Shown here piece after piece: positions 7,565 through 64,000 of a stretch of DNA of 64,000 nt. Positions within the stretch are counted from its first letter, which is position 1. The number at the start of each line of letters is the position of its first letter. Made by a program: the position numbers and the translations under genes. Below the pieces are notes generated by a model. The model was not told where the DNA came from and did no database searches. It saw only the letters and a program-made list of their open reading frames with translations. The stretch comes from Biomphalaria glabrata. Lineage: Eukaryota. The stretch lies in NCBI RefSeq assembly GCF_947242115.1, contig NC_074722.1, positions 29,796,340 to 29,860,339 of the forward strand, given 5' to 3'.

Positions 7565-8650
7565 TCTACTAGGAACTTTAACAATTCGTCCACTTCTGGT
7601 TGTCTTGACTGAACAAGTTCTCTAGACGTTGGTCTATAACTGTCTGCTTCGTTTGTAGCAACAGTTTGCAGTTCATTGTCTTCATCGGTATCATAGTACC
7701 CAGAGAAGCATCCACACAATCCTGATGCAGTCCCAGCTGCGATGGGCAGGTCACGTCTACAGAATGGAAGACCACCGCATCCCTAAACAACTCTTGTATG
7801 GCCAACTAAGCGAAGGAAAGCGCTCGCAAGGTGGGCAAAGAAAGCGCTTCAGGGACACCCTCAAAGCTTCTCTGAAGGCGTTCAGCATAGACCCTGGCAC
7901 CTGGGAGACAGAGGCACATGACAGAGCATCATGGCGTCGCGCTGTGAAAACTAGCGCACAGGTTGCTGAGGAAAAAAGAACAACGCAGGCAGAAGAAAAA
8001 CGCCAGAAAAGAAAAGCAAGACAATTGACACTAGCTCCAGCTGGAATAACCTGCCCAGTGTGCGGCCGAACATTCCGGGCTCACATAGGTCTCACCAGCC
8101 ACATGAGGAGGCATAAAACCCCATTGCATAGCCCTCAGCCCCCTGGATGACAAAGTGGTCATCATCGAACCACGATGGACGAACTATATATCATAGTACC
8201 CAGAGATGTCTTCATCGAAACTCTTATTTAAAAAGCGTTGATTTCTTCTGTATGTTATTCCATTGTTTGTCTTTATGATGTAAGATCTGGCTGCTGAATT
8301 TTTTTTTATGACAACTGCTTTCTGCCATGTTTGACCTAGACGAATAATCTTTAGGTAGTCTTGCTTTTGCATCGTATTTCACTTAGCTTTTCATCTGTCG
8401 TTCGTTGAGTAATGTCTCTGCATTTTCAGCTACCAATGGTTTCAATAGTTTGTCATCAGTTGGAATGATTCCCTGAGTCTTCTACTCGTCAGCAGTTGTG
8501 ATGGTGATTTCATATACGGCAGTCCACTTATCGGAGTATTTCTATACTCGAGCATAACGAGATATGGATCTTTCCCACTTTTGTATACTCTGAATCCTTT
8601 TGCTTTCGCACAAAACATAAACAACCAACAATGACGTAATGCCATATAAT
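7565..8650 (-). mobile_element. Ty3/gypsy-type integrase C-terminal remnant (LEYRNTPISGLPY..SPSQLLTSRRLR ... YIIKTNNGITYRRNQRFL). It is interrupted by the LINE at 7707-8188.
   Basis: Minus-strand ORFs 8442-8645, 8184-8372 and 7498-7719 join into a continuous integrase-tail reading frame once the LINE insert is removed. Confidence 0.6.
7707..8188 (+). mobile_element. 5'-truncated L2/CR1-type LINE 3' end (482 bp) with an 18-bp TSD TATCATAGTACCCAGAGA.
   Basis: The ORF encodes RWAGHVYRMEDHRIPKQLLYGQL...GRP...WR... plus a C-terminal zinc finger CPVCGRTFRAHIGLTSHMRRH. The TSD copies lie at 7689-7706 and 8189-8206. Confidence 0.8.
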
Positions 8651-9672: not shown

Positions 9673-11229
9673 TAGGATAATAACAAGAATAATCTTCATT
9701 TCTGAGGAAACATCCTAAACTTATCAAAAACAACCAACAATTGACAATTATATAAAAAAAATATATTAACAGATTCTAAGTAGTAAGACTAAGACTGCTT
9801 TATTGATCCTTATGGAAATTTGTTGTGATTACAAGGACTCTTTTCTCATATGCAGACAACACAACAGAAACATACACATAAGTAGAACAGACACAACATA
9901 AAGAGTTCATTCATCGACTACACACAGGCATCTTGGTCCTTTTCATGTTTTCTGATCGAAGGGTGGCGTTGATATAGTCTGACCGAGTAAGGAACGAACG
10001 AGTTTTTGTACCGCTCTGTACTTTCTTACATAATCATAGTACATACCGGCTACGCCTGTTGATTTGTTCCCAGGCTTTATATTGTTTCTTATAGCGTTCA
10101 CTCTCTGGAACCCCCATTCTGCTTTTTTTTTTTTTTAACTTGCGCATCGTATTTCTCGGACATTGACTTTTTACTTGATTTAAAAGACCCGCTTCATAAT
10201 GCGCCCCTGACACATACACGATCTCATATTTTGGGCCTGTTAATTTCAGTAACCCTTTGACTTATCCGCTTCACCCCCACCCCACCCCACCCCCGGCCAA
10301 AATTATTTTTAATGCTATTAGGATTGTGTTTTTTTTATAGGCGTCTAAAAAGAAGCGGAAATGACGCAAGACATTAAAAATAAGTAAACTTAGGAAAAAC
10401 GAAAAAAAATGCTATAAAAATACGAAATTTGTGAGACATTTTTTAATGCTTTATGTATAGACTGCGGTCTTTTTTTGGGGGGAAATACCGAAAATAAAAT
10501 ACAAAAGAGTTTTTGAAAAGCTCGCTGTTTTTCGCGAATAGCAGACGTCAGATTTGCGAATCTGTCATAATCGGTTCTTATTGAACGTCCTGGGGGTAAA
10601 AAGAAACTGCCTACGAAATTTCATGCGTATCCGTACTTTAAACTTAAAGATCGCAAGGTCTGAAAGAGGAACTTTGCCTGAATCTAGGTTTAATTATTAT
10701 CCAAGTACATTTAAAATAGCCCCAATGTTTCAAAAAGTACACTATTTTAAGTAAGGGACATTGTTTTGTCTTCTTCCGTTTAAGGGAGAGTCGTCTGCGA
10801 CAATATGAACTGGAAGAAAACACTTCGAAACGTCTCCGCTAACGTGATTCTTCTCGATCTACTTGTTTCAGAATCCTGGAAATTCTTCTGTCTGTAGTAA
10901 GACGTTATGCTAACAGCTTGTGTGTGACAAGCGCATACATCAGCGACAAGACGAAGCTGATCTTACGAATCAGGCTCATTACAGGCGTACGTGTGTTATA
11001 TACACCTTAAATGCCCTTCGCATCATAGCATTAGTCAGTGCTGCCTCTATCTTTATTAGACTAATTTGACCTGCAACAACCAGGATACGAGACTAAAATA
11101 ACCTAGACAGACAGACATATCTGGATAAGACATTTCTGAGTTATGAGTGCAAGAAAACATTTCAATATCGGTCCGTTCCTCCTTTTTTTAAAATTATATA
11201 TATATATAATTGACATGCGTCAAGAACAC

Positions 11230-11811
11230 ATATTAAATAGCTTCTACTTACGCTGCCTGCGGCGCATAATGTGCATATCCTGGAAGGATCATGTCTCCAA
11301 CCAGGAGGTTCTGAAACGGGCCAATATTCACAACATGTATGCTCTTCTTACACAGAGAAGACTACGCTGGCTCGGTCATGTCACTCGCATGCCAGATGGA
11401 AGAATACTTAAAGACATACTATACGCTGAGCTTGCAAATGGAGTCAGACCCAAGGGCCGCCCAAGACTAACCTACAGAGATGTCTGTGAGCGAGACATGA
11501 GAACCACGGGCATCGAACAAAGTATGTGGGAGGAGATATCCCAAGACCGGACAGCATGGAGACAGACTGTACGTGCTGGTACGAACTTCGCCGAGTGCAA
11601 AAGTAACGAAGCTGCATCAGTCAAGAGAAAGAAGAAGAAAGCTGCCTGTCAACTAGCCCTAAGTCAGATGCATATACATGCACGAACTGTGGCAAACTCT
11701 GCCGCTCCAGAATTGGCTTGATCAGTCACACCAGATTCTGCCCCGTCTCAAGACCAATCCAAAGCCAATGACTCACCTGGGCCCATCCATTGTCTTCCGA
11801 GACACAAGGAG

Positions 11812-13835: not shown

Positions 13836-15471
13836 TATTAATTAATGAATTAATCTAATCACTTTAGTTTTTCCTTAAATACAAACCTTTTCTCTTTCTT
13901 TTTTGCCTCAGTGTAGCTGGGTATTACACTTGTTCAGTATTCACCAGCTGTTAGGTTAGTTGGTGAGGCCCTCTCCAAACTGTCTATACTGTCATAGTTT
14001 TGTGTCTGCAGTGTCGCCACAGATTCTCTGTACAACGAATATTTTCTTCGTCATTGCTAATGTGTTTGTCCCCCTTATATCTTTTGTACTGGTTTTGTTT
14101 CTCCACAATGTACCGACATAGTTCCCCCAATCTTTTTTTTTTTTTTGGCTTGTCCAAAAGTCCCTTGCAGTATATTAGAACTTACAGTTAGACTAACGCT
14201 GATTTGGAGTTGTATGTATTATTGCTACTTATCATAATAGTCGTTTTGTGTGCCTTTCTGCTACTCGTTCGATATTTATAAAACATCCGCCAGGTTCACC
14301 TTGAACAATATCTTCATAACAATCATTTCATTGAATACATATGAATATTAACAATGTAATAATATTTCTAGCATTATATATGCGGTAACACTTTCGCTAT
14401 ACACACGTCTATTTTGTGTGGACTGACGATGGGCTGTAGTTATTGATAGTTTGTGTTAATGATTTCTGATATTACTGTTGAAAATATTGAAACCTGCCCT
14501 GGGACGTTACTGAGTTTGTGTTTCCACACGAACTCTCTTTGTAATCCTGTTATACAGTACTAATAATCCGCGAAAAGCACGCCGCTGTTCTTGAAATGTA
14601 ATTACTGTTGAGCAGTTGGATATTTTACATGGGCAAAGACTTTTTTTTTTAAACCCCCGCCGCCGAACATTGACCGAGATCTCGCTTTTCAACCTGTGAC
14701 CATGTTCGGCTCATCCTATCAAACAGTTTCCACCCGTTGAGCTAACGTTGAGACCTCCTCCCCATCGCCAGCTCATTGTGATACTTGTATGTTTGAATGT
14801 ATAGATTTCCACCTGCTGCGTGTCTTAAACTTCAGCGTTATACCGGTATCTCATTTGCTTATGTGATCTTTTTGTATTTCAATTGAGCATCATTAATTGT
14901 GTTTTAACTTCGGACAAAAAACAAAGGGCGGGGAGGGGGAGATGCGGTATAAACTATTATTTTGTTTGACTGCCTTTGCCTTTGACTACATCAATAATTC
15001 TCATGTGCTCTTGGTCTGTCTTTGTACTGGGCTTTACGAATCGCCAGTGAAGACGGAACGAGGACAGAAGACGTGGAAAGTAATGGGATTAGTTTCAACA
15101 GAGCGGGATCAGATGGTAATGGAAAATTGAGCCCACTTTGAATGCACGTGTTCATACCCACACACCCTGCAGACAATAGTCCATCTTTGATTTAAGATAA
15201 GCTTCGTATTGTTGTTTAGTGGGCTTCAGTCCCACTGACACCTCTCCCTTTCTTTGCGTACGTGTTCTGTTCCGAAGTGCTGTCTAGCCCTTTTTTTTTC
15301 CCCCTTGATTTGCCGAAGCCTTTGCTACATTCCTGTTTCCCCCTCCCCTCTCACCCCCCCAAAAAAAACTTGAGCAGTTTTGTAGGTGTTCAAAGTTAAA
15401 ATATTATAAGTATTAGAAAATATATTTAGCATGTTAAAATATTTCTTTTTTTTTTCTAATTACTTATATCA

Positions 15472-21184: not shown

Positions 21185-21460
21185 AGAAAAGTAAAGTTAA
21201 CCCTTTCAAACCTTGTGATCTATAGGGCAAATGACGTAAAGGTCATCTGTTTCTGTGGCCCATTGTTAATCAGGGTGTTATGTGCCCAACACGAGGACCA
21301 ACCGCCAAGACTTTTCTCCACCTAATATCAGGTACCCATTAGAGCTGGGTAGACTCAGAGGTCCCCAAAGATCCGGAAATTAAAAATCCCAGTCTTTACA
21401 AGGATTCGAACCCAGGTTTGGAAACCAAGCACTTTACCACTCAGCCACCACACCTCCTTT
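21185..21460 (-). mobile_element. SINE family 1 copy in GLT1D1 intron 5.
   Basis: Contains the conserved body aaaggtcatctgtttctgtggcc...gggtagactcagaggtccccaaagatccggaaattaaaaatccca...ggattcgaacccagg. Confidence 0.75.
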
Positions 21461-30899: not shown

Positions 30900-32700
30900 T
30901 AAACAGGTAGGTCTTAATGTTCTTCTTGAAAGAAGTGAGCATGTTGTCTGTCTGAAATCAATGGCGAGTGAGTTCCAAACCTTTGGGCCGTAGCTTTTGA
31001 GGGAGAAACGTGGCACCACTAGAAGCGATGAGTCCTTTGGGCGTAGGGCTCTCTGAGGGACATGAAGTGATTAGTTCGCTAAGGTACAAGGGCATCTCAT
31101 TGTTATATATACACTGATGACAAAGTATGGCCACCTTGTAATCGATTCTTGCTTTCACGGGAAGCCAATGGAGCGTGCGCAAGAGCGTAGTAGCAGAATC
31201 TCGTCTTGTTTTTCTAAGGACTATTGTTATTCTATTTTGTCATCGGGTATACCTGCTAGCACGGCGTTGCAGTAGTCAAGGCGGAAGAGTATGAATGCCA
31301 CAGCTAGCTTTTTTGTTGACTCCGTTGTTAAATATGGTCGGATCTGGCCTAATTTGCGCAGCTGCAGATAAAGACCCTTGCAGAGCTGACTTATGTGAGG
31401 GTTGGTTAAAGGATAGTGTTGAGTCGAAGAAAACACCAATATTCCGCACTACATGGACAAAAGGAACCTGGCAGTTCGTGATAAAAAGAGAATCTGTGCT
31501 CTCGACTTTTGAGACGTTGTTCCGAGTGTCAATCTTAATTATTTCTGTCTTGTCTTCGTTCATCTTGAGTTTATTCTCAACCATTCAATCGCTCACCCTT
31601 GCAACGGTACCACTGATTTTCTCTGCCAGTTGCGACACCTCTGAGGGTACTGAGTAATCGTATAACTGTGAGTCATCGGCAAAGAAGTGGTATAAGATGC
31701 CGATTGGCCGTATGACACCGCTAAGTGGCTATGTATACATAGTGATCAGTACTGGGCCTAGAACTGATCATTGGGGTACTTCGTACTTCAAGAGTAAGCT
31801 TGTTGATTATTGATTAACAACGACACTTTGGGTGCGTTCAGTCAGGTAGGATATAAGCCACGTTAGAAGTAGAACTATTCCTGCTAAACCAAATGGGCAG
31901 AGAATCTGGCCATCATAATTTCGTGGCCTAGCGTATCAAAGTCTGCGGACAAGTCCAGCATTGAAAGAATTGAGATGTGGCCTATGTCGGAATTGTGAAG
32001 TAAGTCGTTTAGTACTCTGACCACTGCTGTCTCTGTGCTGCGGCACTTCCTATATGCAGATTGAAATTCTTCCAAGAGACAGTACTGTTCAAGATGAGAA
32101 AGAATTTGTGCTAACACGATGTAATCCAGACACTTTGACAGGAAGGGGAGATTTGATACCGGGCGATAGTTTTTTTTTAGACATTCCGGGTCAAGACTGG
32201 ATTTCTTTAATAAGGGCCTGACAAGTGCATGCTTAAACTGATGTGGTACAATGCCTGAAGTCAGTGAAGAGTTCACAATGTTAGAATTGTGGATACAAGC
32301 TCATCTAAACATTCAAGGATCAAGGAAGTTGGAATGGGATCAATGTCACATGACTTATTTGCCATCTTTAAAAATAATACTTTTGACATAATCTTCAGAG
32401 ACACGCTGAAACTCGCAAAAAGGAGAATTTTGAAAGATTGGAGAGTGGTCAAGCTGTGATGAGAGGGATGGCATGTCATTTGTAATCAGTTTAATCTTGC
32501 CAATGAAGAATCTATTGAAGGAATCAGGGAGTTCAGATGCTGGGATAGATGACGGCAAACGTTCGTTATTAGCTTCCCCTAACATTTCAGCGGTGATCCT
32601 AAACAGCTCCTTTGAAGAATCACAAGTTTCGATTTTGTGTCGAATATGACTAGCTTTTGCGTCTCTAATCATGCGGTTCACCTAGTTATTTTCTAGGATG
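30900..32700 (-). mobile_element. Degenerate L2-clade LINE. It carries RT domains including FADD and the C-terminal LHWLPVKARIDYKV...YLSELI tail.
   Basis: Minus ORFs read [16 protein letters not shown]...[10 protein letters not shown], then LYHFFADDSQLY, LNEDKTEII, RLDYCNAVLAGIP and LHWLPVKARIDYKVAILCHQCIYN. Frameshifts and stops are present. Confidence 0.75.
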
Positions 32701-42111: not shown

Positions 42112-42312
42112 CAGTGGCGTAGCCAGGGTGGGGAAGAGGGGGAGAATTTGAAAATTCCCGGGGCCCTATTTGAAAGGGTTCCCCAAATGAGTGTTCGAAA
42201 TTGTTTTGTTTTTTACATTAAATTTTAAATATTACGCAAAATGCTGAGGGACCCCAAAGAGGCCAAGCCCCTCGGGCCCCCAAATGATGGCAAATTCCTA
42301 GCTACACCACTG
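42112..42312. mobile_element. 201-bp hAT-family MITE, reference copy. It has TIR CAGTGGCGTAGC(C/T)AGG and a perfect 8-bp TSD GTATTTGG.
   Basis: GTATTTGG occurs at 42104-42111 and at 42313-42320. The termini are cagtggcgtagccagg ... cctagctacaccactg. The element has an internal palindromic G/C-run core. Confidence 0.85.
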
Positions 42313-45416: not shown

Positions 45417-45848
45417 GATTTTCTGTATTACAAGTTATAACTTGATTTTCTGTATAACAAGGTATAATTTGATTTTCTGTATTACAAAGTATAATTAATT
45501 TTCTGTATTACAAGATATAACTTGATTTTCTGTATAACAAGGTATAATTTGATTTTCTGTATTACAAAGTATAATTAATTTTCTGTATTACAAGATATAA
45601 CTTGATTTTCTGTATTACAAGGTATAACTTGATTTTCTGTATTACAAGGTATAATTTGATTTTCTGTATTACAAGGTATAACTTGATTTTCTGTATTAAA
45701 AGGTATAACTTGATTTTCTGTATTACAAGGTATAACTTGATTTTCTGTATTAAAAGGTATAACTTGATTTTCTGTATTAAAAGGTATAACTTGATTTTCT
45801 GTATTAAAAGGTATAACTTGATTTTCTGTATTAAAAGGTATAACTTAT
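45417..45848. repeat. 27-bp minisatellite, about 16 units (attttctgtattacaaggtataacttg), with a 3-unit higher-order repeat at the 5' side.
   Basis: Direct reading. The 124-aa and 84-aa ORFs across it are repeat artefacts. Confidence 0.95.
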
Positions 45849-45944
45849 TTACGTGAATGTCCAAACCACTAACGGAAATAATTTTATATTGAAGCACAAT
45901 TTGATAATTGGCTATTAAATCGCAATATAGCATCAAACTTTTTA

Positions 45945-47720: not shown

Positions 47721-48142
47721 AAAGTGATAAAAACAGAAACGAATAAAAAAGATTAAGGGACATAACTAATAAATCTACTATCGTGTGTATGATGGCCCAT
47801 TACCTCCCACAAATGCCCACAATACATTTTAAATTGAGGTGTCAACAAAGTGGTTTCCGGACAACTTTTGTGTCTACAAAGACAGGCAGGGCAACTAGTA
47901 AACAATCGCTCTTTGTGAAGCTACTGCAATATCACAGATCCATAGAGTTCTATACACCAAAGCAGTGGCGTAGCTAGAGTATATGATGCCTGGTGCGGTA
48001 CCTCATCTTGATGCCCCCCTCCCCCCCCCCCCAAAAAAAAAATTATTAGTAACATTGCAAAACCTTACTTTTTTGTTCAAAATAATATGTATTCATTAAT
48101 CAAATATTGTTAATTCAAAAAAATCACTTTTACATAAACATA

Positions 48143-49200
48143 CTATAAATAAATTTTACGCGCTTTCTTGCTGGCAAAAGTATCAATAATTTTATCAAAA
48201 TCAATTTTTTCCACCAGCTCTTGTTCAATGGACAAAATGGCCAAATTAGTGAGTCGTAAATTTGTCATCGTTGATCGCAAGTAATTCTTAATAAGTTTAA
48301 GTTTGGAAAAACTTCTCTCGCATGTAGCGACGCTTACTGCAATAGTCAAAAATAGGCGAATCATGATGACGATATTCGGGACTGAATCATCTAGCTGATA
48401 TTTTGTTATAAATTTCAAGAGCTCAAAAGGTCCTTGTTTTGGAAGTTAGGAGGCTTCTGATGAAACTGTGACAAACTGTTGAAGCCTCTTTCATTCCAGC
48501 AGAAATTCGTTTTTATCAATGTCGCTAGGAGTACTATCGAGATTGATTTCGACCTGAGGATTTAATAGCTGGGAAGGCGACAAAAATTCATATCTATCTG
48601 CTACACCATGAAGTTGCTCGAATCGGGAGATTATTTCTTGAACAATCCTGTCCAAGGTAGAATAAATTTCCCTTCGTAGCTCTTCTTTGTGTGTAAGTAC
48701 AGAGTCGTCACTTTTCTCACCAGGCATCTTTTTCTTATGGCCGATACGTTTTTGAGGTTCTGTACTGATTCTCAGATCTGAACACACGCTTTCGGCAAAG
48801 GTAATGCTGGCTTCAGCGATGTCCTCTCGATTAATACTTTAAAATGTCTCTAGTTTTTAGTTTGAGTGAACAGTCTTGAATAGACAATCCTTGTTTTTGA
48901 AGGTAGAATTGCGCATCATTAATTTCAGTTAATACAGGAGCCCAAAATCCAAGATAGGTGAGAAAATTAAAAGACTGAATAACAACCAATAATCCACCTG
49001 CTTCAGATCTAGTCGATGAATATTCATCTCTGCTAGTTAATGTCTCCAGAGTTTCTATAATTTTAGAAAATGTATCCCTAACGATCTTGACGGCTTCTCC
49101 TCTGGCGCTCCAGTGGGTCTCAACTAGACGTTTAAGGTTAGTTCAGGTTATTTTGATGAGGATATCCCAGCGGTGTGTTGAAGTTGAGAAAAAGGAGTGT
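48143..49200 (-). pseudogene. hAT transposase C-terminal half, frameshifted remnant. It contains the hATC dimerisation domain (ATCERSFSKLKLIKNYLRSTMTNLRLTNLAILSIE) and a T(R/H)WSARGEAV region.
   Basis: ORFs 48143-48418 and 48491-48787 plus broken frames up to about 49200. The ..THWSARGEAVKIVRDTFSKIIETLE motif is typical of hAT transposases. Confidence 0.75.
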
Positions 49201-49739
49201 GAACGGTCCAGTGTACCAAAAAATGACAAGGCCTAAAGTTTAATAACATTCTTTTCTTTGGTGGGAAAGGTTGAGATGAAGTTATGCTCTTAGGTTTATT
49301 TGATTCATTGTTGATACCTACATTACAATACTCTGATGAATTACGAGTTATCTGTATTCAGTGCTTTATGTTTTTGCATTTTATGATTTTACATTGCAAA
49401 TTTTGAAATGTTTTAGTATATTTTATTCTTTTTGACTGTTGTTTAATTATTACTGTATTGTGTACACTGTGCTGATGGTTCAGCTTCTTCAGTAGGAATG
49501 TTTGAGGAGTGTACTAGAAACATGCTTGTGTGCTGGCTGTCCTTTAGTCTCTAGAACCTGCGGTATTGAAGTAGTTTCTTCTTTTTCATCATTCAGGATG
49601 TCGGCCTCATCATTTTTTTTCTGGATTCAATGATAACCGTCTCATCTTGCTTTGTTGCTTTTAATTGTTCAGTTAATTCATACCCAATAACAGCTCGCCT
49701 ATAGTCGGTGGACTCTGGCAATGATGTGACTTGAAATTG

Positions 49740-50850
49740 TCTCGATACTTCTTTAGACTTAAGAAATTTAAGAAACGCACCTCACTGCGGTCAAAGAAAC
49801 TGCTTTATGCGGATGACATTGCCCTCTGGTCAACCGGGAAGAAAGCCGACTAAATGCATGCGGCTTTACAAGCAGACCTCCAAACCATCTCCTCGTATTG
49901 CGACAAATGACAGATTCAGATAAACGTTACCAAAACGACCTGGTCCCTGTTCAGCCTAGGGATCGACATTCTTAAGGCTCTATTCGAGCTTCAACTCGGT
50001 GGGCTGAGACTCCAACGTGAAAACATGCCAAAATATCTAGGGGTGACCCTGGATAGAAAACTGACAATGCTCCAGCACGTCCAGGAAGTTGAAAGAAAAG
50101 CCTCGGAGAAGTTAGCGTTACTAAGAAAGCTGGCCAGCACAAAGTGGGGTGTCAAAGCTAACATGCTACGCACAGTGTACTTAGGGGCAGTCAGATCACA
50201 AATTGAGTACAGCTATACAGTTCAAGTATATGCTAGTAAAACTGCCCTCGAATCACTCGACTGAGTACAATTACAGGCACTAAGGTTCATTTGTGGCACC
50301 TTTCTGACAAGCCCAACAAACGCTGCTGAAATCTTAACAAACATGGCCCCTTTACATTTAAGGAGGGAGAGGGCGGTACTTACGGCCTACGAGCGCTACA
50401 AAAGGGGCGACTCTAGGCTACCCACCACAATCTTAGTGCAACAATGGAGAGAGAGGAACCGCATTAAAATGCGATCGTTCCTCCACATTGCGACCAATTT
50501 GTCAAAATCAGCTGGGCTCTCCACTGATAGAATTCCTACTAGGAGAATTAGTACTTGCCCTGCGTGGAGGAGATTGCCGGCCCCACAAACAAACATGTCC
50601 CTTATAGGGCAAGAGGGAGCCACCAAGAGGCGATTAACATCTGCCATACTCCAAAACTTGGCATCAGCTACACTAAAGTCCTACCCATCAGATACCATTT
50701 TCTACTATACCGATGGGTCGGTAATGAGGGACCCCGATAGATCTGGGTATGGGGCCCTTATAGTCTACCCAGACCGGAAAGAACCAGAGATGCCGATTTC
50801 TCCATCTGAGCTTAAAAGGGCTTTGAGGCGCCAGCCAGACTAGTCAGTCT
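49740..50850 (+). mobile_element. I/R1-like non-LTR retrotransposon fragment (RT motif YADD, then RNase H IFYTDGS) nested inside the hAT element.
   Basis: Reads LLYADDIALWSTGKKAD, then MPKYLGVTLDRKLTMLQHV...WGVKANMLRTVYLGAVRSQIEYS, then ..TIFYYTDGSVMRDPDRSGYGALIV. Contains stops and frameshifts. Confidence 0.7.
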
Positions 50851-51552
50851 TGAGCACTGTTCATCATTTTGTTTTACGTTACAGTATTACAATTAACTAC
50901 TTAGTTTAAAAAATAAAACTCGTAGAAAACAAAGGTTAGCTTATTTAAAAATATTGACATTACAATAGAATTATTTCCAAAATTAAACTTTAAAGAATCA
51001 TAAAGAAATGAATAAACTAAGACAATTATTTAGAGCTAGAGTTTAGAAATATATTTGTAAACTCTATATCTAGATTAAACCAATGGACTAAACAATGAAG
51101 TAAAAAAAGGTTGGCCTATCTTCTTCTTCTTCTTTATATTACAGAGCATTGATCAGTGTAGTAACAACATGTACCGTGTGTCCGAAATAAATCTAGTAAA
51201 TTAGATACAAACTGTTCTATAGCTTACATTGTATGGAAGAAATAGTCAAGGAGATGAAACAAAATAGCAACATGACTAGTTTATAAATCGTTAATTCATG
51301 TTTAAAATACAGTAGTTTGTTCGTGTCCATACAGTTAGTTGTTTTTACTGAAAAGCTCATGGAAATAGAAAATTAATACACACTGTGTGAATTTTGGTGC
51401 CCCTCTCCACTTGGTGCCCTGTGCGGCCCGCACCACCCGCACATTGGTAGCTACGCCACTGCACCAAAGAGTGAAGTATTACCCTCCCTTCTTTAGAGTA
51501 GGCCTAAACTACACTAATATTTCTGAAATAGAAGATTTCCCTCACCCCTTTT

Positions 51553-51558
51553 TTTATT
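51553..51558 (-). other. Candidate AATAAA polyadenylation signal for the intronless minus-strand gene, about 255 nt downstream of its stop.
   Basis: The plus strand reads tttatt at 51553-51558. Confidence 0.25.
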
Positions 51559-51811
51559 CCATAAATTTACATATAATAAAAGAAGACATATATATAACAG
51601 CAAGGGTAGGGAAAATGTATTAACCGGAGATTACTTTCATATTCTTTTTTATAATCTTAAAACAGCTCTGTCTCATTTGTAAACACACACACATATTTAC
51701 ACGTATAAATAAATCACACGCGCGCTATGCATAAAATAACTGCACTACTAAATGTGATTGTCTCCACATAAGTGTTTTGTTTTATAAACGACTTAAATTA
51801 CTAATGTTCCT

Positions 51812-53245
51812 TCAAGCCCATCCTTTAAAAACAATTTTTCCATCACTGTTGAATGTGCTGTAGAGATCATGAGATTCATGGGAACTATTCATTACTATCG
51901 AATTGAAATACTTCATGGCGAGATTCTTGTTGTAAAGTGAATCCCGTGGTAGCTCTTTAATGTACTTCCGGTTCCACTCTGACCTGGTGGCATTGTGGGA
52001 TGTGTACAGAGCTGTTACAGTTCGGCCAACGTTTATCACCAGGTGGCCCAGCGTTCTAGAACGCGCTATCAAAAACGGAACCAGGGCGTCGTCGTCGATG
52101 ATTAAAGGTGGAACGTCTGACATGTCTTGCTTGGTAAACACGAAATACACGAAAGCAGCCTGAGGGTTTTCCCACTCGTAGCTCCCTCTGGTGTAGGCCA
52201 GCAGGTTGAGCTCGTACAAGTCCGCAGCGCTACTGAGCTTTTGGTAATGCATGGCTTCCCCGTACATCGCGATAGGCTTCGAGGTGGGAAATCGGTTAGA
52301 TTTAGATTTTTCGTTCTGCGAGGACTTGACTAGGATCTCTTTGACGCCTAAGAGTGACTCTAGAAAGGACGCGTCGAATACACTTGTGGCCTTGACGTAG
52401 CCGTAAAACGTAGCGCTAAACTTTTCCATCACAACCTTGGCCATATTTTGAAAAATGGGAAGGCCTCCAGAACTGTAACCCGGCACCGGAAGACAGGTGA
52501 AGTTCATGGCGTTGGCGTTAGCCATAGTCATCCTGCTGTCCGTAAAGATGATGGTTTCGACGAATGGTCGAACCCGCTTGCAGTTTTCCAGTAGCAGCTT
52601 TCTGCTGAACTTGTCCACGTCCACCAAGTAGTCAGGCCACCAAGTGAATAGAAGCAGTAAATACGGCTCAGCCTTTATTGTGATGTCTTCAAAGAGTTTG
52701 AGTAAACGCGGACAGAAGTTTGCGTCGACTGTCCTTTTCACTAGTTGTCGAGTTCTGGAAACGTTGTAGCACAGGTGTTTACGTAAATACCCAGGATTCA
52801 CCGAAGAAACTATTTTCGTAATATTGGAAACGGGTGGAAGAACCTTATAGTTGGCAGTTATATTTCCTGAAATCGACACGTTGCTCTCGGGGATAGACAA
52901 CCCCATGCCTTGCGCAATGTCTATGTTGTATTGAACATCCGTGCAAATGACGTCCAGTTTTGACTTCAAGCAGTGGTCTTTCAGCTTGGGCCCTCTTTCC
53001 CGCTGAGCCCAAACGATTTCAATGTCGTTTTGGAACTGTTTCAGCACGAGCTCCCTGGAAACGTGGCTCCTTTCCAGTTCATTGTAGGGCACCAACGGCG
53101 TTTTAAGTCGAAAGGCCCAAAGCTTGTTCCTTACAAAACTAATAATAAAAGACCCGCTCAGAAGTAGAAATACAAAAAGAATCGGTAGTGAAAATCTCAG
53201 TAATCGAAGCAGTACTCGCTGGATAGACATCTTCTGAAAATTCAA
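51812..53245 (-). CDS. Intronless 477-aa type-II membrane protein (N-terminal signal anchor, luminal domain with about 9 N-glycosylation sequons). Glycosyltransferase-like with a DxD-type motif (PPLIIDDDALV). Family not assigned.
   Basis: The ORF track gives a continuous 1434-nt ORF, far above chance in about 35% GC DNA. The TM segment FSLPILFVFLLLSGSFIISFV follows a short basic cytoplasmic tail. Sequons NVS, NIT, NFT, NAT and NSS are present. A FTWWPDY motif is present. No canonical sulfotransferase PAPS-binding motifs were found. Confidence 0.6.
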   Translation of the reverse strand: MNFQKMSIQRVLLRLLRFSLPILFVFLLLSGSFIISFVRNKLWAFRLKTPLVPYNELERSHVSRELVLKQFQNDIEIVWAQRERGPKLKDHCLKSKLDVICTDVQYNIDIAQGMGLSIPESNVSISGNITANYKVLPPVSNITKIVSSVNPGYLRKHLCYNVSRTRQLVKRTVDANFCPRLLKLFEDITIKAEPYLLLLFTWWPDYLVDVDKFSRKLLLENCKRVRPFVETIIFTDSRMTMANANAMNFTCLPVPGYSSGGLPIFQNMAKVVMEKFSATFYGYVKATSVFDASFLESLLGVKEILVKSSQNEKSKSNRFPTSKPIAMYGEAMHYQKLSSAADLYELNLLAYTRGSYEWENPQAAFVYFVFTKQDMSDVPPLIIDDDALVPFLIARSRTLGHLVINVGRTVTALYTSHNATRSEWNRKYIKELPRDSLYNKNLAMKYFNSIVMNSSHESHDLYSTFNSDGKIVFKGWA

Positions 53246-53434
53246 TTAGGAACAGATTACAACCAAAGAAAAAAAGCGTAGGCTTAATTAGTGGTGGGTG
53301 GGTAGGGGATGACTATAAATGTAGTTACCATACAAAAACCAAGCCTATCCGATCACCATATTTATACCATTTTCTCGAGGATACGAAGACTTATCAAGAT
53401 GGTAATAAAACAATATTTCTAAATACTGTAAGTA

Positions 53435-53665
53435 AAAAGTTCCCCTTTCAGACCTTGTGGTCTGTTTTTTGTGGCCTACGGTTAACAAGGGTGTCATGTG
53501 GCCAGCACAACAGCAACCAACCGCCTTTACTTTTTCCCAATTAATGTCAGGTACCCCTTAGAGCTGGGTAGACGCGAAGATCCCGAAATTAAAAATCCCA
53601 GTCTTGACCAGGATTCGAACACCGGTCCCCGGTTCGGAGGCCAAGCGCTTTACAGCTCAGAAACC
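53435..53665 (-). mobile_element. SINE family 1 copy.
   Basis: Contains ..ccttgtggtctg..tgtggcctacggttaacaagggtgtcatgtggccagcacaac...gggtagacgcgaagatcccgaaattaaaaatcccagtcttgaccaggattcgaac... Confidence 0.75.
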
Positions 53666-54004
53666 GCGCCTCATTTTAATTACTGATTCTAAGCTATTAT
53701 CTCCAGAGCTTTGTATTAAGGTTGTTTCCAACAGTTTAAATAGGCATAAAGTACTGACATGGTTGGGGAGGGAGCTCTAAAGCTTTTTTTTCACGTTTCT
53801 CTTACCTAATGTTGCACTTTCGACATGAATATCTGAACGTACTTGATTTGATAGCCATATTATGGCCCATATTATATTTAGGTGACTCGCGAAAAAAAAA
53901 ATTTCTTAAGAATATGTAAGCAATTTTTTTTCTAGAATACATTAATTATAGCAAGAAAATCTATTCGAAATAATCTCCAGTTCCTAAGGGCGCGTTAGCT
54001 GACT

Positions 54005-54320
54005 AGTGATGGTTGAGACTCAAAAGTAAAGTAGCAATTATACATAAAACACTGAACCATAATCTTCAAATACAAAAACAAATACATCGAATAAAATACA
54101 ACACAAAGATAGGGGAATATTCCTCGTTCCATATGCTAGGACAAATTTGTACAAATGCTCCTTCTTCCCTAGTGCTATTAGAGCATGGAATGGGTTGCCT
54201 GAGCCAGCCAGGAAAACCAGTGACTTGGCAGAATTTAAGTCATTGGTTAAGATGTATGACGCGTAGGATGTAATCATCTTCTTTTTTGAAGTGACGTCTG
54301 TATTAGCTAAGATAAGAACT
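54005..54320 (+). mobile_element. LINE family A 3' fragment.
   Basis: Homologous to 1680-1965 (RLKSKVAIIHKTLNHNLQI..., tail tgaagtgacgtctgtattagctaagataag). Confidence 0.7.
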
Positions 54321-54480
54321 AAAGTGTCTCGGGATCGAATCCCGGTGAGGAATTAAAAAAAAAATGTTTTGTATTTTTTAGGACGCCCTCGAGTCCACCC
54401 AATGCAAACGGATACCTGATATTGATTGGGTAGGCCATAGAAACAGACGACCCACACATCATCTACCTATAGATCGCATC
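54315..54480 (+). mobile_element. SINE family 1 partial copy.
   Basis: B-box GGATCGAATCCCGG followed by the conserved tail ...atcatctacctatagatcgcatcg. Confidence 0.6.
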
Positions 54481-54959
54481 GATTGGTACTTTACTTTCTA
54501 TTTCTGCAACAAATATTTAAATACTATTCTATCTCTTATCGCAGTATTTTATTATTAGGAACAGAATAATTCAACAACTTACCATCAATGATTTCTGCGA
54601 ACTAAAGTCTGAACCTATGTCTAATTAAGCATATCACGGTAATGTTCATCCAGACCTATATTGTCTATCTAAATATATCATAACAGTAAATAGGCTTCGT
54701 GAACACAGGCCTACACTTGTCACTAATGGGACAAATATCCGCCATGTATGAAAATCTACAACAGCAACCTGCTCAATGTGCTCATCTCCCTTGGCGAGTG
54801 TTGGGTCACGTGACGTGCCATTAAAATCTGAACTTGGTGAGCGATTAATTTTAAACGATTAAGTGGGGGGGGGGGGGGAGAGAGGGTAAGATTATAGGCA
54901 ACATGAAAGGGTAAAACTTTTTTAAAAGAAAACCAATTACAATTGATTGGGACAAATTA

Positions 54960-59830: not shown

Positions 59831-59877
59831 TCAAAAGCTAGTCTCGGAACAACGTCTTATAAACAAAAACATTAAAT

Positions 59878-60073
59878 ATGGCAGATATGATAAGAAGACC
59901 TGATCCGATGCAATCTTCTCCGCGATCTAGTCCTAGAGATCGTGGTTCTAGATCGCCGGCATATCCACGACAAGATTCTTCAGGAACTTTAAAAACTACA
60001 ATAAGCCTTGCACCTGGCAAGACCCCAGCAGTTATTCATACTGGATCATTTTATTTAGTGAAAGACATTCCGG
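59878..60073 (+). CDS. First coding exon of an unidentified gene (MADMIRRPDPMQSSPRSSPRDRGSRSPAYPRQDSSGTLKTTISLAPGKTPAVIHTGSFYLVKDIP.). Donor G|GTAAAAATG. Exon end is uncertain by 1 nt.
   Basis: The ATG has a good Kozak context (aaatATGg). TATAAA lies at 59851-59856. Phase 1 at the donor joins in frame to the exon at 62090. The ORF track gives a continuous frame through the donor; my nucleotide reading near 60060 would put a stop at 60076-78 (see findings). Confidence 0.45.
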
Positions 60074-60789
60074 GTAAAAATGTTTTCTTTTACTTAATTA
60101 TACTCAATACTTATACTGTAACTGTAACTTTTAACTTTACTCAGACACCGAGACAGTCATAGTCATAGATTATGATAGATGTAGATCTATAAAGTAAAAG
60201 TTTACTTATTATAACTTAAAGTTTAATTTGAACTGAAGCCTAGAGACTAGAGTAGACTAGAGGCTAGTTGAAGTTAACTTCATAAAAGTTGTTTTTATTT
60301 TTTTTATTATTATTATTATTAATTTATTATTATAACAAAAATGTCAAGATTTGTTAAATTTTAAAATTTCAGTCTCGAGTAGTATAGATTCTACACTTTT
60401 ACAATCGTAACAATGAGTTTTAATTTTTGTAAGTTGATTCCTATTTGTGACCTATATTAGATCTAAGTGTTGATTTTTAAATCATTTCAAAACAAATATA
60501 AAAGATTTAAAATGTGCTTGAGAAAAAATGAAAACAAACACTGACACAGTAATGAAATGAAAATAAATTAATGTTCATTATATTGGTGATTATTCAAACC
60601 ATTTACTTTACTGACGAACATTACATTGTATTTATTTATAAAATTATAAAACTATTTCAAAATAGGGCACGTCTGAAAAAAACAACAACTAAATCTGCAG
60701 TTTAGCATTTAAAGGATTTATTATTTTATAATTTTATATTCACAAGATATGAATTTTACAAATGCATTTTCATGCACTTTTTGCTTTTA

Positions 60790-60860
60790 ACACAAAAGTA
60801 AATTCACATAGATCTAGTAAGGATAAAGCATTCTATAGATCTAGATCTAAAGTAGGTACT
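60790..60860. repeat. TCTAGA/AGATCT-rich tract, intronic.
   Basis: Reads catagatctagtaaggataaagcattctatagatctagatctaaagtagg. Confidence 0.6.
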
Positions 60861-61439
60861 CTCACAGGCGGCCATATTGGATCTAAAAACACATTTGACA
60901 TCAAAACAATTTCCTGTTCAGGTTTTACAAAACTGAAATTAAGCATGTCATAAGAAAAGACATCACTTTATAACTGAGTGTTTTTATGACATTTTCTTGG
61001 GTTTATTCTAAAGATAAGAGGTTCCTCTAATGGCCAGTGGGAAATTTTTATTTTTTTTCTCTTACTATGTCCAAAATATTTTAATCTGAAAAATTTGAAA
61101 TTTTCAAATAACAAGGAAAAAATATAGGTCTCCGTACATCTTTAGTTTTAACCCATACACTTAGAAAATTCATTCAGCTTTCCAATGATACCAAATTTAT
61201 TATGATTAAACGAGTCAACGATATTTTAAAACTTAGCACACTTTTTTCAGGTACTAGAATTTCACTAAGGCCGGGATGACCTTTTATCATTAATATCCGT
61301 TTTTTACATAACAAAAATAAAATTAGTGTACACTAAAACATGTCAAATTGAAGAATCACTTCTTTATACCTATATCATTGCTTATTAACATAAAATATAA
61401 TAAATACCTGTATTCTTGGGAGTTCTTTTGGTCAGTCGA

Positions 61440-61600
61440 TGTCGAAGCTAAAATCTGTAAATCTAGGTATCTAAAATATTCTTTCAAATAAATATACTTA
61501 AATAGATCTAAATCTTAAATCTAAAGATTCTTTTTCTAATCTACACTATTGTTTTATAACTAGATAGATCTAGATCAATTTAGAAGCTTATTGTGTTGAA
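61440..61600. repeat. TCTAGA/AGATCT-rich tract, intronic.
   Basis: Reads ctaggtatctaaaat...aatagatctaaatcttaaatctaaagattc...actagatagatctagatcaatttagaag. Confidence 0.6.
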
Positions 61601-62089
61601 AACTTGACAACCAGGAGCATTTTTCTTTTTATAGACTATTTTAAGAAAATTAGAAAAAATTGTATTTTTTCGTAATTTACTAATGATGTTTTAACATTTT
61701 AATTTCATTTTGATTTGCCAGTTATAAATTAAAATTCCTCCTTTAAAACTGTACAATTTGATAATATACTTTTGTATATGTATTCACAATAGTTTTTGAA
61801 ATATTCACATTAAAAAAAAATTGCTTCACTTTTTTTTATATTTCTCTATATAAAGACCATAGGATGTCAGGACGCCTCGGACATAATAATAGCATAGCAT
61901 AATAAATTTGGTGTTGTTGGAAAGCATTTTTCATCCTCTTTCATTCTATTACACATTTGTTGGTATAGGATTAATTTAAATTTTTTGGTGCAACTACCTA
62001 ATCTAAAGTAAATTATCTACTATAGACTTTACTCCTTACTAAAATTTTCTTTTATATGTATCAGTATATAATATTTCTCAATATTTCAG

Positions 62090-62246
62090 ATGAAGCAGAA
62101 ATAACTGGCAGTACCAACTTATTGAACTACTACAATTTGGAACATTCATACAACAGATTTTTAAATAAAAAAGTGAAAGAAGAACTCAGCGCTTTTCTTC
62201 CGCATCTTCCTGGTAATATAGACTCACCTGGAATACAGGATAACAG
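62090..62246 (+). CDS. PX-domain-like coding exon (DEAEITGSTNLLNYYNLEHSYNRFLNKKVKEELSAFLPHLPGNIDSPGIQDN.).
   Basis: Acceptor tttctcaatatttcag, donor AACAG|GTTTGT. The sequence resembles the PX consensus (V-RRYSDF--L---L-----P-LPGK), here HSYNRFLNKKVKEELSAFLPHLPGN. Confidence 0.45.
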
Positions 62247-63267
62247 GTTTGTCTGAATAACCACTTTTAATTTTTAAGACTTGTAATTAACAATATAAAT
62301 AGGTTTTATGTTTTGTTGTTGTGATCATGATTCATAGCCAAACGGCCAATTAGATGTTATAAAGTTTCTTACCTCTATTTATAACTAATGTTTTATAAAG
62401 GTCTCATGTAGCTTGCATTGCATCTACAGCCTCTACTTTCCACAAATGTCAGATAACTATTAGCACTAGATGAACTTGGGTTACCTTAAGACTTCAAAGT
62501 AAGAAGTCCCAACCTTCACTAAGATTTAAATTTATGACTCTTCTTTCATATTGTATGCAAATGGCTTTACAAATGGGATTCACATCCTATTATCCTCCTT
62601 TATTATGTTTGTTGTTTGTCCATCATGATCACTGAAGACAGCTACTTTTATCTAAGAGGACTGACGGCTAAGCACTGCATTTCTATGCCTCCAAATATGA
62701 TTGGTGATAAGCCTATTGGAACCAGGAATGTTTATCTACAAAGTGAGCATGCTTTGTAACTGGTCCCAATATGCATAGCCATTTCTTTCAGCTTTGTCAC
62801 TTTTTTTCTTCTACATTTTAATAATGCGAATGTAATTGTTGTTAACAATGTTTTTTCCATTAAAAGTAAACCTTTTGGTATTTTGTTTATAGCTCTTTAA
62901 AATGACTTATTAAATATTCTAGATTTTTTTTTTTCCAGTGATAACTATTGAACATAGACATTTTTCTTAAATATATGTACCAGGGCTGTGTAATAATACA
63001 AACTAAAGTTTCAACTAGCTTGTGAGATATAAGAACTGTAAATATTATATTTTTATTTTCTAAATTTACCTAAGCTACCAAATTACTTTTTTATTTTGTG
63101 TCCATAATAATAAATATTTATTCTGTTAAGTTCAGGAAAACCATTCCATGTTACAAGTATTGAATTTTCATGGAGGAAAGAGCATCTGCTTATTGTACGT
63201 TTTGCATTAGATAAAATATTTTATTTTTTTTTAATTGTGTAAAAAAAATTTTCATTCTTTTTACTAG

Positions 63268-63367
63268 TTCTTTAAGATCACTTATAGAAAAAACACCAAT
63301 CACTGGAAAAGAGTTGACTCAACTCTCAGGCTCAGCACTGTCAGGATTTAGATTACATCCTGGTCCT
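63268..63367 (+). CDS. Candidate downstream exon (.SLRSLIEKTPITGKELTQLSGSALSGFRLHPGP), phase-consistent with the PX exon.
   Basis: Acceptor ttctttttactag, donor CCT|GTAAGT. It starts with 1 nt, then 33 codons, and ends in phase 0. Confidence 0.3.
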
Positions 63368-63707
63368 GTAAGTTGCTGTTTTTTAATATGATACAAAATA
63401 TATATGAAGTTGATTTTAGAATTATTTTAAATTTAAAACCTCCTTGAGAAAAACAAGAATGGTAAAAAAAAATAAAAAAATTGAAAACTGAAACTTAAAG
63501 TAGAGGAAAAAAATTATGTCAAAGTAATATTACTAAGTATACAGCTGTTTAATTTTTTCTCCCAAAAATGATTAAAATTCTATTGAGTGTTAAAAATTAG
63601 ACATGAGTAAGCCGGGTAACTGGCATTAATTTGTGATTCCACCTGTTATTTATCAGTATTTCTGAAATATGAAAAACTTATGTATTTAAATATTACTTAA
63701 CATATAG

Positions 63708-63813
63708 CTTCCAGAACAGTATCAACTTATGAATCAAATGACACAGAAGAAGAAAAGGCACAAAAAGAAAATTAAAGATTCAGAAAAAGGAAGCACTTTA
63801 CAGTTATCTCAGA
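63708..63813 (+). CDS. Candidate downstream exon (LPEQYQLMNQMTQKKKRHKKKIKDSEKGSTLQLSQ.), phase 0 start.
   Basis: Acceptor aacatatag, donor AGA|GTAAGT. Open for 35 codons. Confidence 0.3.
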
Positions 63814-64000
63814 GTAAGTAATTTTTTGTTTGAATTTTTTTTTTTTTTATTTAAAAAAAAATATATAACACCATTGAATTTGTCTTACTATGCTCAAGTG
63901 TTATGTTAATAAAAACAAACAACTAATGTAACATTATTTGAGTTGTTTGTAGACTGTCCCATTTTTTGTTTAGATAGCATCATGTATAAAACTGTAAAAT

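Follow-up and report, generated by a model that had tools for sequence, protein, structure and literature searches.

The window analysed here is a 64-kb stretch of Biomphalaria glabrata DNA. Its longest open reading frame (ORF) lies on the reverse strand (51812..53245, -) and comprises 477 codons when counted from an in-frame TTG, or 472 aa when counted from the first ATG at 53230, which bears out what the first-pass annotation had reported for it. The runner-up in the window is 192 aa long, and the chance expectation for ORFs as long as the 477-codon one, in 64 kb of the same composition, is ~7e-11. From MSIQ onwards the ORF product is 100% identical to RefSeq protein XP_013062190.2, encoded by B. 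glabrata gene LOC106051547. The gene itself was already known, and is annotated as "uncharacterized".

LOC106051547 is a functional gene of two exons, and its entire reading frame is on the second. The whole functional CDS is the coding part of exon 2 (51812..53235, -); it begins with AAG, contains the ATG at 53230 and 472 codons, and its translation ends at the stop codon at 51812-51814 (-). A non-coding 5′ exon, of which the 3′ part only was delineated (54583..54858, -), is assigned on the basis of two annotation models and splice consensus, and is separated from exon 2 by a 1,347-nt intron (53236..54582, -) that starts with GTAAGT and ends with a polypyrimidine tract and ttttcag. The donor of exon 1 (...tcattgATG/GTAAGT at 54583/54582) conforms to the consensus, the acceptor reads ttttcag/AAGATG, and the acceptor context is also kept in B. 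pfeifferi. The ttttcag motif 5′ of the ATG, which had been suspected to be an acceptor, is therefore a real one, as it ends this intron. The description of the gene as intronless applies to the CDS, which is on one exon, but not to the gene, whose intron is located two codons 5′ of the main ATG. The final three bases of the 5′ exon (54585-54583) are ATG, the start codon of the RefSeq model; the RefSeq protein starts with MK-MSIQ because the 5′ intron splits its coding, so that this start is not contiguously encodable. The 5′ exon was located via the M-line gene model P0280, whose N-terminal extension maps to 54583..54858 and contains stop codons there in the window. When a conserved non-coding 5′ exon was sought by comparing Biomphalaria with Bulinus or Lymnaea, only the first exon of Med19 was recovered. 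Rfam and tRNA scans over the gene region gave no matches. A tRNA-derived SINE-like repeat is present inside the 5′ intron, around positions 53460-53700. At the other end of the gene, a candidate poly(A) signal AATAAA (51553..51558, -), proposed from the sequence alone, is located 254 nt past the stop codon and 92 nt ahead of a hAT insertion.

This insertion is a decayed hAT transposon that lies outside the gene (47963..51461, -). It has perfect TIRs of 14 nt (CAGTGGCGTAGCTA), is flanked by a perfect 8-bp target-site duplication (CACCAAAG; 47955-47962 and 51462-51469), and contains a hAT domain, found in a decayed transposase ORF (48143-48418, -) that matches PF05699 with an E value of 6e-12. 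The stop codon of LOC106051547 at 51812 is 351 bp away from the TIR end at 51461, in agreement with the earlier estimate of ~350 bp. At the orthologous site of B. pfeifferi there is no hAT element and a single copy of the 8-mer. Since the element is absent from this site, the adjacency of gene and transposon is a recent accident, with no support for any further meaning; the adjoining transposon is unrelated to the gene.

The coding sequence is under clear constraint. Comparison with B. pfeifferi yielded a dS of 0.057, a dN of 0.0115 and an omega of 0.20 (Fisher p ~1e-5), and the identity between the two species is 97.9% in the CDS versus 87-93% in the flanks. Synonymous sites are saturated in comparisons with Bulinus and Lymnaea (pS 0.69-0.79), and pN is just 0.27-0.39. 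No disruption of the ORF is seen in B. pfeifferi or in any of three B. glabrata strains. The dN/dS of 0.20 excludes that the gene is a pseudogene. Orthologues were found in heterobranch gastropods, with one hit per species; the eight cluster representatives obtained at E<1e-30 all come from different heterobranch species, which gives no support to the lineage-specific expansion that had been considered (expansion is seen in bivalves instead, see below). The heterobranch orthologues share 42 invariant positions, many of them charged, at a mean identity of 34%. LOC106051547 is a real, conserved, single-copy protein-coding gene under purifying selection.

The first-pass annotation had raised the possibility that LOC106051547, being single-exon, is a retrogene. 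According to this explanation the gene would be a retrogene or a recent intronless copy that possibly moved with or by the adjacent transposon and is possibly decaying. The presence of its CDS on one exon and the proximity of the transposon end to the stop codon would fit such an origin, as would the contrast with the neighbouring gene Med19 (59866-63815, +), which is multi-exon with small exons, as had been noted for the other host genes. However, Med19 is located divergently upstream of the gene in four species, i.e. in this window and in B. pfeifferi, Bulinus and Lymnaea. In addition, the gene carries its own 5′ intron, the hAT element is missing from the B. pfeifferi site, the omega value is low, and no multi-exon parent is present among 211 homologues. 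The CDS is on a single exon in the window gene and in those of Bulinus, Lymnaea, Physella, B. pfeifferi, Gigantopelta and Mizuhopecten. Because it is seen in the Physella, Gigantopelta and Mizuhopecten family members, which include a distant scallop and a deep-sea snail, the one-exon architecture, which is the rule in this family, is ancient. The Aplysia gene departs from it, with two true introns in its coding region (after aa 43 and 311, i.e. at 43/44 and 311/312), but represents an orthologue rather than a parent. Recent retroposition is refuted by the kept Med19 position, the 5′ intron and the absence of a parent among the homologues, and a retrogene in the broader sense is highly improbable.

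The protein has the layout of a type II membrane protein, as had been proposed. The sole segment with a Kyte-Doolittle hydropathy above 1.6 is a signal-anchor transmembrane helix of 21 aa (aa 13-33, FSLPILFVFLLLSGSFIISFV; 53132..53194, -), which has R12 and R34 on either side and follows a short, Arg-rich cytosolic tail of 12 aa; in the AlphaFold model this anchor is covered by a helix spanning residues 2-41. The hydrophobic N-terminal anchor was examined in the window protein and in its heterobranch orthologues, and the latter keep the type II (N-in signal-anchor) topology. The anchor is also present in the Lymnaea ORF, upstream of the annotated Met. It is followed by a luminal stem (aa 34-185; 52676..53131, -) that is mostly helical and contains the conserved cysteines Cys154 and Cys173. 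This stem is largely heterobranch-specific: most of its residues correspond to gapped or insert columns when aligned with the wider family described below. The remainder consists of a domain (aa 186-470; 51821..52675, -) with a predicted GT-A (nucleotide-diphospho-sugar-transferase-like) fold. We counted seven N-x-S/T sequons in the protein, rather than the nine given previously, and four of the seven are in the stem. LOC106051547 is therefore predicted to encode a secretory-pathway membrane protein of type II that is N-glycosylated and has a cytosolic tail of 12 aa, a 21-aa anchor, a helical stem of ~150 aa and a luminal GT-A domain of ~285 aa. Its topology would be consistent with localisation in the Golgi.

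The fold of the luminal domain was predicted with AlphaFold using a 57-sequence family alignment. In the resulting model the domain forms a single Rossmann-like alpha/beta/alpha unit with GT-A strand order, according to which it is a GT-A glycosyltransferase (GT) fold. This agrees with the earlier guess that the protein is GT-like, and the statement that it cannot be assigned by sequence to a known GT family also stands. A Pfam search with the window protein gave no hits even at E<=10. Searches of Pfam, NCBIfam and the PDB sequences with the protein and 57 family members at E<=10 produced scattered chance matches only; no GT model recurred across the 57 members, and no Pfam GT2 model matched at any threshold. 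Likewise, a profile search against the PDB sequences gave nothing at E<=10, and an hhalign comparison of the canonical-family profile with the E. coli GT2 enzymes WcaA and WcaE was not significant (probability <1%). This non-significant run placed, in its local alignment, NSD/NGD of the family on NSGD of WcaE, a match that we do not regard as evidence. A literature search for LOC106051547, A0A2C9LL74 or the family descriptors returned nothing relevant. An origin by horizontal transfer, suggested by the intronless, lineage-restricted nature of the gene and its bacterial-looking fold, received no support: no confirmed relative emerged when 185,579 prokaryotic genomes and IMG/VR were scanned by motif, an approach that required an exact match and hence had limited sensitivity.

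Sequence relatives were found within molluscs. A family profile built from three sequences gave 211 hits at E<1e-3, with alignments covering profile positions ~140-465; most of the family members were drawn from ENA or Logan assemblies. Among canonical relatives, the closest comes from Gigantopelta, a gastropod (E 3.6e-18). The family is greatly expanded in bivalves, where it reaches hundreds of copies (e.g. Sinanodonta locus tags 010631-010656), and some members bear the UniRef name 'Nucleotide-diphospho-sugar transferase'. These homologies place the window protein in an undescribed, orphan and apparently mollusc-restricted GT-A family, of which LOC106051547, judged by sequence comparison, is a single-copy heterobranch member on a very divergent branch. 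The canonical members, among which are Gigantopelta aegis LOC121367948, Mizuhopecten yessoensis LOC110448187 and a Littorina saxatilis 'Nucleotide-diphospho-sugar transferase domain-containing protein', show significant homology to the window protein and the same domain order, and those of Gigantopelta and Mizuhopecten resemble the window gene in having a single-exon CDS. Structural residues F195, P258, Y276, G324, Y362 and N434 are common to canonical members and the window protein. On the other hand, the stem of the window protein is ~100 aa longer, and the window gene is single-copy whereas the canonical members form large tandem families.

A further difference concerns the signature residues, for which we compared 268 canonical with nine heterobranch sequences. 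The canonical motif set is NGD / RTN / AED / GRxAYDNW / VHQ. Neither the window protein nor its heterobranch orthologues retain any of the nine near-invariant polar signature residues in these motifs (N280, D282, R326, N328, D358, R380, D384, N385 and H409). For this reason we consider the window protein to represent a divergent sister or derived branch and not a canonical member. The family N-x-D position reads K280-A281-T282 in the window protein (52385..52393, -) and is located directly after beta-4 (residues 273-279 in the AlphaFold model). N280 is present in 261/268 and D282 in 264/268 canonical sequences; none of the nine heterobranch sequences has D, or any other acid, at position 282. 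Its place after beta-4 in the predicted model suggests that N-x-D is the equivalent of DxD, and an acidic metal-binding motif after beta-4 (DxD or equivalent) is absent in the window protein. The DDD triplet that had been taken as DxD-like does exist (D379-D380-D381; 52088..52096, -), but lies elsewhere than the DxD position: its counterpart in the family is the G-R of V-I-G-R-x-A-Y-D-N-W. [DE]379 and D380 are invariant in 9/9 heterobranch orthologues and D381 is variable. The loss of every signature residue, as seen in these alignments, argues against ordinary transferase activity. Since some true GT-A enzymes work without DxD, the missing motif lowers the probability of activity without excluding it.

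The reading that we prefer, and in which we have high confidence, is that LOC106051547 is a real, constrained and syntenic gene of this family, with the GT-A fold and the motif replacement described, whose product is luminal, derives from a GT-A protein and has a remodelled pocket. The wider family would consist of Golgi glycosyltransferases in which N-x-D after beta-4 may serve as metal/diphosphate site and an acidic base may be provided at the helix start in ...G-R-x-A-Y-D-N-W. The heterobranch branch would have been remodelled ahead of the heterobranch radiation, losing the nine signature residues and fixing a set of its own: D231, R233, D286, [DE]379-D380, R390, R421 and R429. If the pocket was remodelled in this way, it would therefore still bind a ligand, though its chemistry would differ. 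Two sub-readings, a metal-independent or re-wired sugar transferase and a non-catalytic GT-derived partner protein, carry roughly equal weight.

One serious candidate, although we place it somewhat below an even chance, is a glycosyltransferase that has remained active by means of a relocated or metal-independent site and still transfers sugar from a nucleotide sugar. The acid roles would be taken over by D286, which follows the lost D282 by four residues, and by [DE]379-D380, which precede the lost D384 by four to five; alternatively, the newly fixed arginines would bind the diphosphate, as in GT14 core-2 GlcNAc-transferase. Consistent with activity, the clade-specific invariant charges are found in post-beta-strand loops or at helix starts, beside lost family residues, and D231 at the end of beta-2, the position of the nucleotide-base binder in GT-A enzymes, is kept and is invariant in heterobranchs (canonical members have N or D). 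Strong purifying selection and the existence of GT-A families that work without DxD point in the same direction, but a joint change of nine signature polar residues would be unusual for an enzyme that keeps the same reaction. That the DxD equivalent and the other signature residues are gone in every heterobranch orthologue, yet constraint persists, can also be explained by a pseudo-glycosyltransferase, which would have kept fold and pocket to bind a partner enzyme or a glycan in the ER/Golgi as a chaperone, cofactor, scaffold or lectin, comparable to Cosmc, which assists T-synthase, or to ChPF, which assists chondroitin synthase. We advance this possibility tentatively. The added conserved stem of ~100-150 aa with its conserved cysteines could mediate protein contacts, and the presence of one orthologue per species resembles the situation of other dedicated partner proteins. 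However, a limited check identified no canonical member in heterobranchs that might be the client, and conservation of charged residues at the pocket edge is equally compatible with catalysis. A more specific proposal seems rather unlikely as it stands: the GT-A protein of the heterobranch orthogroup would have no catalytic activity and, since its recruitment more than 200 million years ago, would act in the ER/Golgi as a dedicated partner protein (lectin, cofactor or chaperone); its parental, unclassified GT family would make mollusc-specific glycans. It is improbable that the protein is another enzyme with a nucleotide-diphospho-sugar fold, such as a nucleotidyl-/cytidylyltransferase-like protein or a luminal phospho-sugar transferase.

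The closest known proteins are GT2-type GT-A enzymes, namely E. coli K4 chondroitin polymerase (2z86), a Leptospira GT (6p61), AvpGT (9jma) and B. subtilis SpsA (1h7l). Sequence identity with these enzymes is ~10%, and the window protein differs from them in having K-A-T at the place of DxD and in being eukaryotic, with type II membrane topology and a long stem. Two other systems offer parallels. Cosmc (C1GALT1C1) is a GT31-derived chaperone with a known client, T-synthase. Like the snail protein it is a conserved, GT-A-derived type II protein of the secretory pathway that lacks DxD and is encoded by a single-copy gene with a single coding exon, but there is no sequence relationship between the two, and inactivity of the snail protein is a possibility. 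The core-2/I-branching GlcNAc-transferases of GT14 are metal-independent GT-A enzymes of Golgi type II topology that have no DxD and use basic residues in the metal's stead; the arginines newly fixed in the snail clade (R233, R390, R421 and R429) are reminiscent of these.

The locus points to a Golgi-type GT-A family that neither Pfam nor searches against the sequences of solved structures pick up, and its hundreds of bivalve copies make it a candidate new glycosyltransferase family. To our knowledge, many of the unusual modifications of mollusc glycans have no known enzymes. The snail branch constitutes a natural experiment in which every signature residue was exchanged and the gene is still single-copy and constrained, a pattern expected of a re-invented active site or of a pseudo-enzyme. 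Snail glycans are implicated in the compatibility between Biomphalaria and Schistosoma. If the product of LOC106051547 were a dead partner protein, it could be a factor that shapes the glycans taking part in molecular mimicry between parasite and host in Biomphalaria, a schistosome vector.

The uninterrupted ORF at positions 51812..53245 of the minus strand comprises 477 codons if an in-frame TTG is taken as the start; from the first ATG (53230) it encodes 472 aa. It is by a wide margin the longest ORF of the 64-kb window; the runner-up (192 aa) and the other long ORFs have, judged by eye, the appearance of retroelement fragments, and the number of ORFs this long expected by chance in a sequence of the window's composition is ~7e-11. 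Its product is 100% identical to XP_013062190.2 ("uncharacterized protein LOC106051547", Biomphalaria glabrata). This gene already carries an annotation, as uncharacterized, and we found no paper mentioning LOC106051547; the novelty lies in assigning it to an undescribed GT-A family and in the wholesale exchange of that family's conserved residues. The protein has a single hydrophobic segment of 21 residues (aa 13-33), with arginines on both sides and preceded by an Arg-rich 12-aa tail, which bears out the type II topology proposed in the first-pass annotation. It contains six cysteines and seven N-x-S/T sequons. Apart from the sequon count, given there as nine, and a 5′ intron, the earlier description of the ORF was accurate.

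The gene had been regarded as intronless, which holds for the CDS only. The RefSeq protein starts with MK-MSIQ, and the genomic codons preceding AAG ATG are stop-L-N-F-Q; therefore, the initial ATG must come from an upstream exon. In an independent gene model of strain M-line an N-terminal extension maps to positions 54858-54583 (-), and the stop codons present in this stretch of the window indicate that it constitutes 5′ UTR. The 5′ exon ends in ...TCA TTG ATG and is followed by the consensus donor GTAAGT. The acceptor, a polypyrimidine tract plus ttttcag directly ahead of AAG ATG at 53235, had already been noted as a possible splice site and is preserved in B. pfeifferi. Together, the mapping of the M-line model, the donor and the acceptor show that the gene contains a 1,347-nt intron (53236-54582, minus strand) and that exon 2 carries effectively all of the CDS. 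This intron harbours a SINE-like repeat of tRNA origin (53460-53700, minus strand) that includes a B-box-like GTTCGAATCC, and a second copy is present at ~21387-21412 (-); neither ARAGORN nor Rfam called a tRNA in this repeat.

The 472-aa protein is also annotated in strains BS90 and M-line, with four substitutions in each, and the B. pfeifferi version differs by 12 substitutions. At the nucleotide level the CDS shows 30 differences from the B. pfeifferi locus (97.9% identity), and identity is only 87-93% in most of the non-coding flanks. The comparison with B. pfeifferi yielded a dS of 0.057, a dN of 0.0115 and an omega of 0.20 (Fisher p ~1e-5); against Bulinus and Lymnaea, pS was 0.69-0.79, meaning that synonymous sites are saturated, and pN was 0.27-0.39. 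The low omega, and a pN well under the saturated pS, demonstrate that the gene is under purifying selection, which rules out that it is a pseudogene.

The orthologues of Bulinus truncatus, Lymnaea stagnalis and B. pfeifferi have a single coding exon each and are divergent neighbours of Med19, whose exons in the window (59866-60078, 62041-62253, 63287-63373 and 63708-63815, plus strand) show 79-99% protein identity to Bulinus. In addition, at ~41.9 kb the window matches an exon of the gene that lies downstream in Bulinus. A single-exon CDS is also found in the Physella orthologue and in distant family members of the vent snail Gigantopelta and the scallop Mizuhopecten, and is thus an old family trait. 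This, together with the conserved Med19 synteny, excludes a recent retrocopy; a retrogene had been considered in the first-pass annotation. The exception is Aplysia, whose orthologue model has three coding exons; the intron located in the domain is bounded by GT..AG and contains in-frame stops. The introns within the Aplysia CDS are true GT..AG introns, and one of them is located at the equivalent of P248/V249 of the window protein. On KB941525.1, a myosin heavy-chain gene model of the same strand encloses the Aplysia californica orthologue. The annotated orthologue of Lymnaea stagnalis (422 aa) lacks its N-terminal part: in the region 9779-10000 of locus L002 the ORF extends further, as far as an upstream ATG (MSPRKALERRWLRW...), and encodes the signal anchor that the annotation omits. 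The first exons of the GT-like gene and of Med19, which encodes a Mediator subunit and is transcribed divergently, are at most ~5 kb apart, so that a bidirectional promoter region may be common to both.

The stop codon is separated by 351 bp from a decayed but genuine hAT element (47963-51461), which has perfect 14-nt TIRs (CAGTGGCGTAGCTA), a perfect 8-bp target duplication (CACCAAAG) and the remains of an ORF with a match to PF05699, the hAT dimerisation domain (E 6e-12). The alignment with B. pfeifferi skips from window position 51462 directly to 47967, and the empty site of that species (~11746-11757 of its locus, L005) retains the 8-bp target once (CTTTGGTG, in gene orientation). Therefore, the element entered the B. 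glabrata lineage after the two species had diverged. A candidate AATAAA signal precedes the insertion by ~90 nt. The nearness of the element to the gene, which the first-pass annotation had pointed out, is incidental. Within the element, a nested retroelement fragment is suggested by ORFs at 50025-50843 (+) that include a YTDGS stretch resembling RNase H; a Pfam search of these ORFs gave no match.

In agreement with the first-pass annotation, which could not place the protein in a CAZy family, neither it nor its relatives gave a sequence match in Pfam, NCBIfam or the PDB. An exhaustive profile search identified 211 relatives, eight of which had E<1e-30. These eight come from one heterobranch gastropod species each (Bulinus, Lymnaea, Physella, Candidula, two Elysia species, Aplysia and Plakobranchus), which lends no support to the suggested membership in a lineage-specific expansion. 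A score gap from E 1e-70 to 1e-18 separates the heterobranch set from a large family of 300-450-aa proteins, the named members of which are all from molluscs (Gigantopelta, Batillaria, Littorina and many bivalves) and are throughout annotated as "uncharacterized" or, in UniRef, "Nucleotide-diphospho-sugar transferase...". The family is strongly expanded in bivalves, as in Sinanodonta, where locus tags are consecutive in a run. Motif scanning of prokaryotic genomes and viral contigs detected no relatives. Three distant members (P0011-P0013, ENA/Logan, 719-921 aa) have double the length, with two to three stretches that match the profile. Weak NCBIfam matches to geranylgeranyl reductase (E 2e-4) were seen in five family members.

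One HMM was used to align 268 canonical members with the 9 heterobranch orthologues. The near-invariant polar residues of the canonical family are found in N280-x-D282, directly after beta-4, in R326-T-N328, E357-D358, D400 and H409-Q410, and in G379-R380-x-A-Y383-D384-N385-W386, where a helix starts. Judged by the strand order of the predicted model, N280-x-D282 would occupy the DxD place of GT-A enzymes. The window protein has K-A-T at N280-x-D282, A-M-H at R326-T-N328, Q-A at E357-D358, D-D-D-A-L-V-P-F at G379..W386, N at D400 and Y-T at H409-Q410. Replacement of N280, D282, R326, N328, D358, R380, D384, N385 and H409 was observed in all nine heterobranch proteins; position 400 is acidic in seven of them. 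The DDD at aa 379-381, previously read as a DxD-like motif, aligns with the G-R of the canonical family and is therefore not the DxD; within the heterobranch clade its conservation is limited to [DE]379-D380. The clade in turn keeps 42 positions invariant at a mean identity of 34%, among them D231, R233, D286, D380, R390, R421 and R429, with D286 four residues past the lost D282 and D380 four residues ahead of the lost D384. At the sequence level, this pattern is consistent with a pocket that was conserved while its chemistry changed, and not with decay.

Sequence membership in each of the described families tested failed for the window protein. It is homologous to the orphan mollusc family but lacks its signature residues, and we therefore call it a divergent branch and not a canonical member. 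Its predicted fold and mode of working would liken it to Golgi GT-A glycosyltransferases, except that it has no DxD equivalent. It may be a re-wired or metal-independent transferase or, with similar weight, a GT-derived, non-catalytic partner protein comparable to Cosmc. Of the interpretation in the first-pass annotation, the GT-like fold, the topology and the lack of a known family stand; the DDD as DxD, the intronless or retrogene status and the membership in an expansion find no support, and neither does any relevance of the hAT neighbour.

Other repeats are present in the window. A 27-bp minisatellite (GATTTTCTGTATTACAAGGTATAACTT) at 45417-45850 has 16 copies (92% match), and the orthologous stretch in B. 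pfeifferi (13864-13955 of its locus) is only ~92 bp, so the array expanded in B. glabrata. At 42112-42312 a pair of inverted termini (CAGTGGCGTAGC... / CAGTGGTGTAGC...), ~200 bp apart and resembling the hAT TIR, is probably a hAT-derived MITE; a further solo match lies at 6450-6465. Finally, ORFs at 7725-8150, 11143-11721 and 31884-32276 look like reverse-transcriptase or C-terminal fragments of non-LTR retrotransposons (LINEs), which fits a repeat-rich intergenic landscape.
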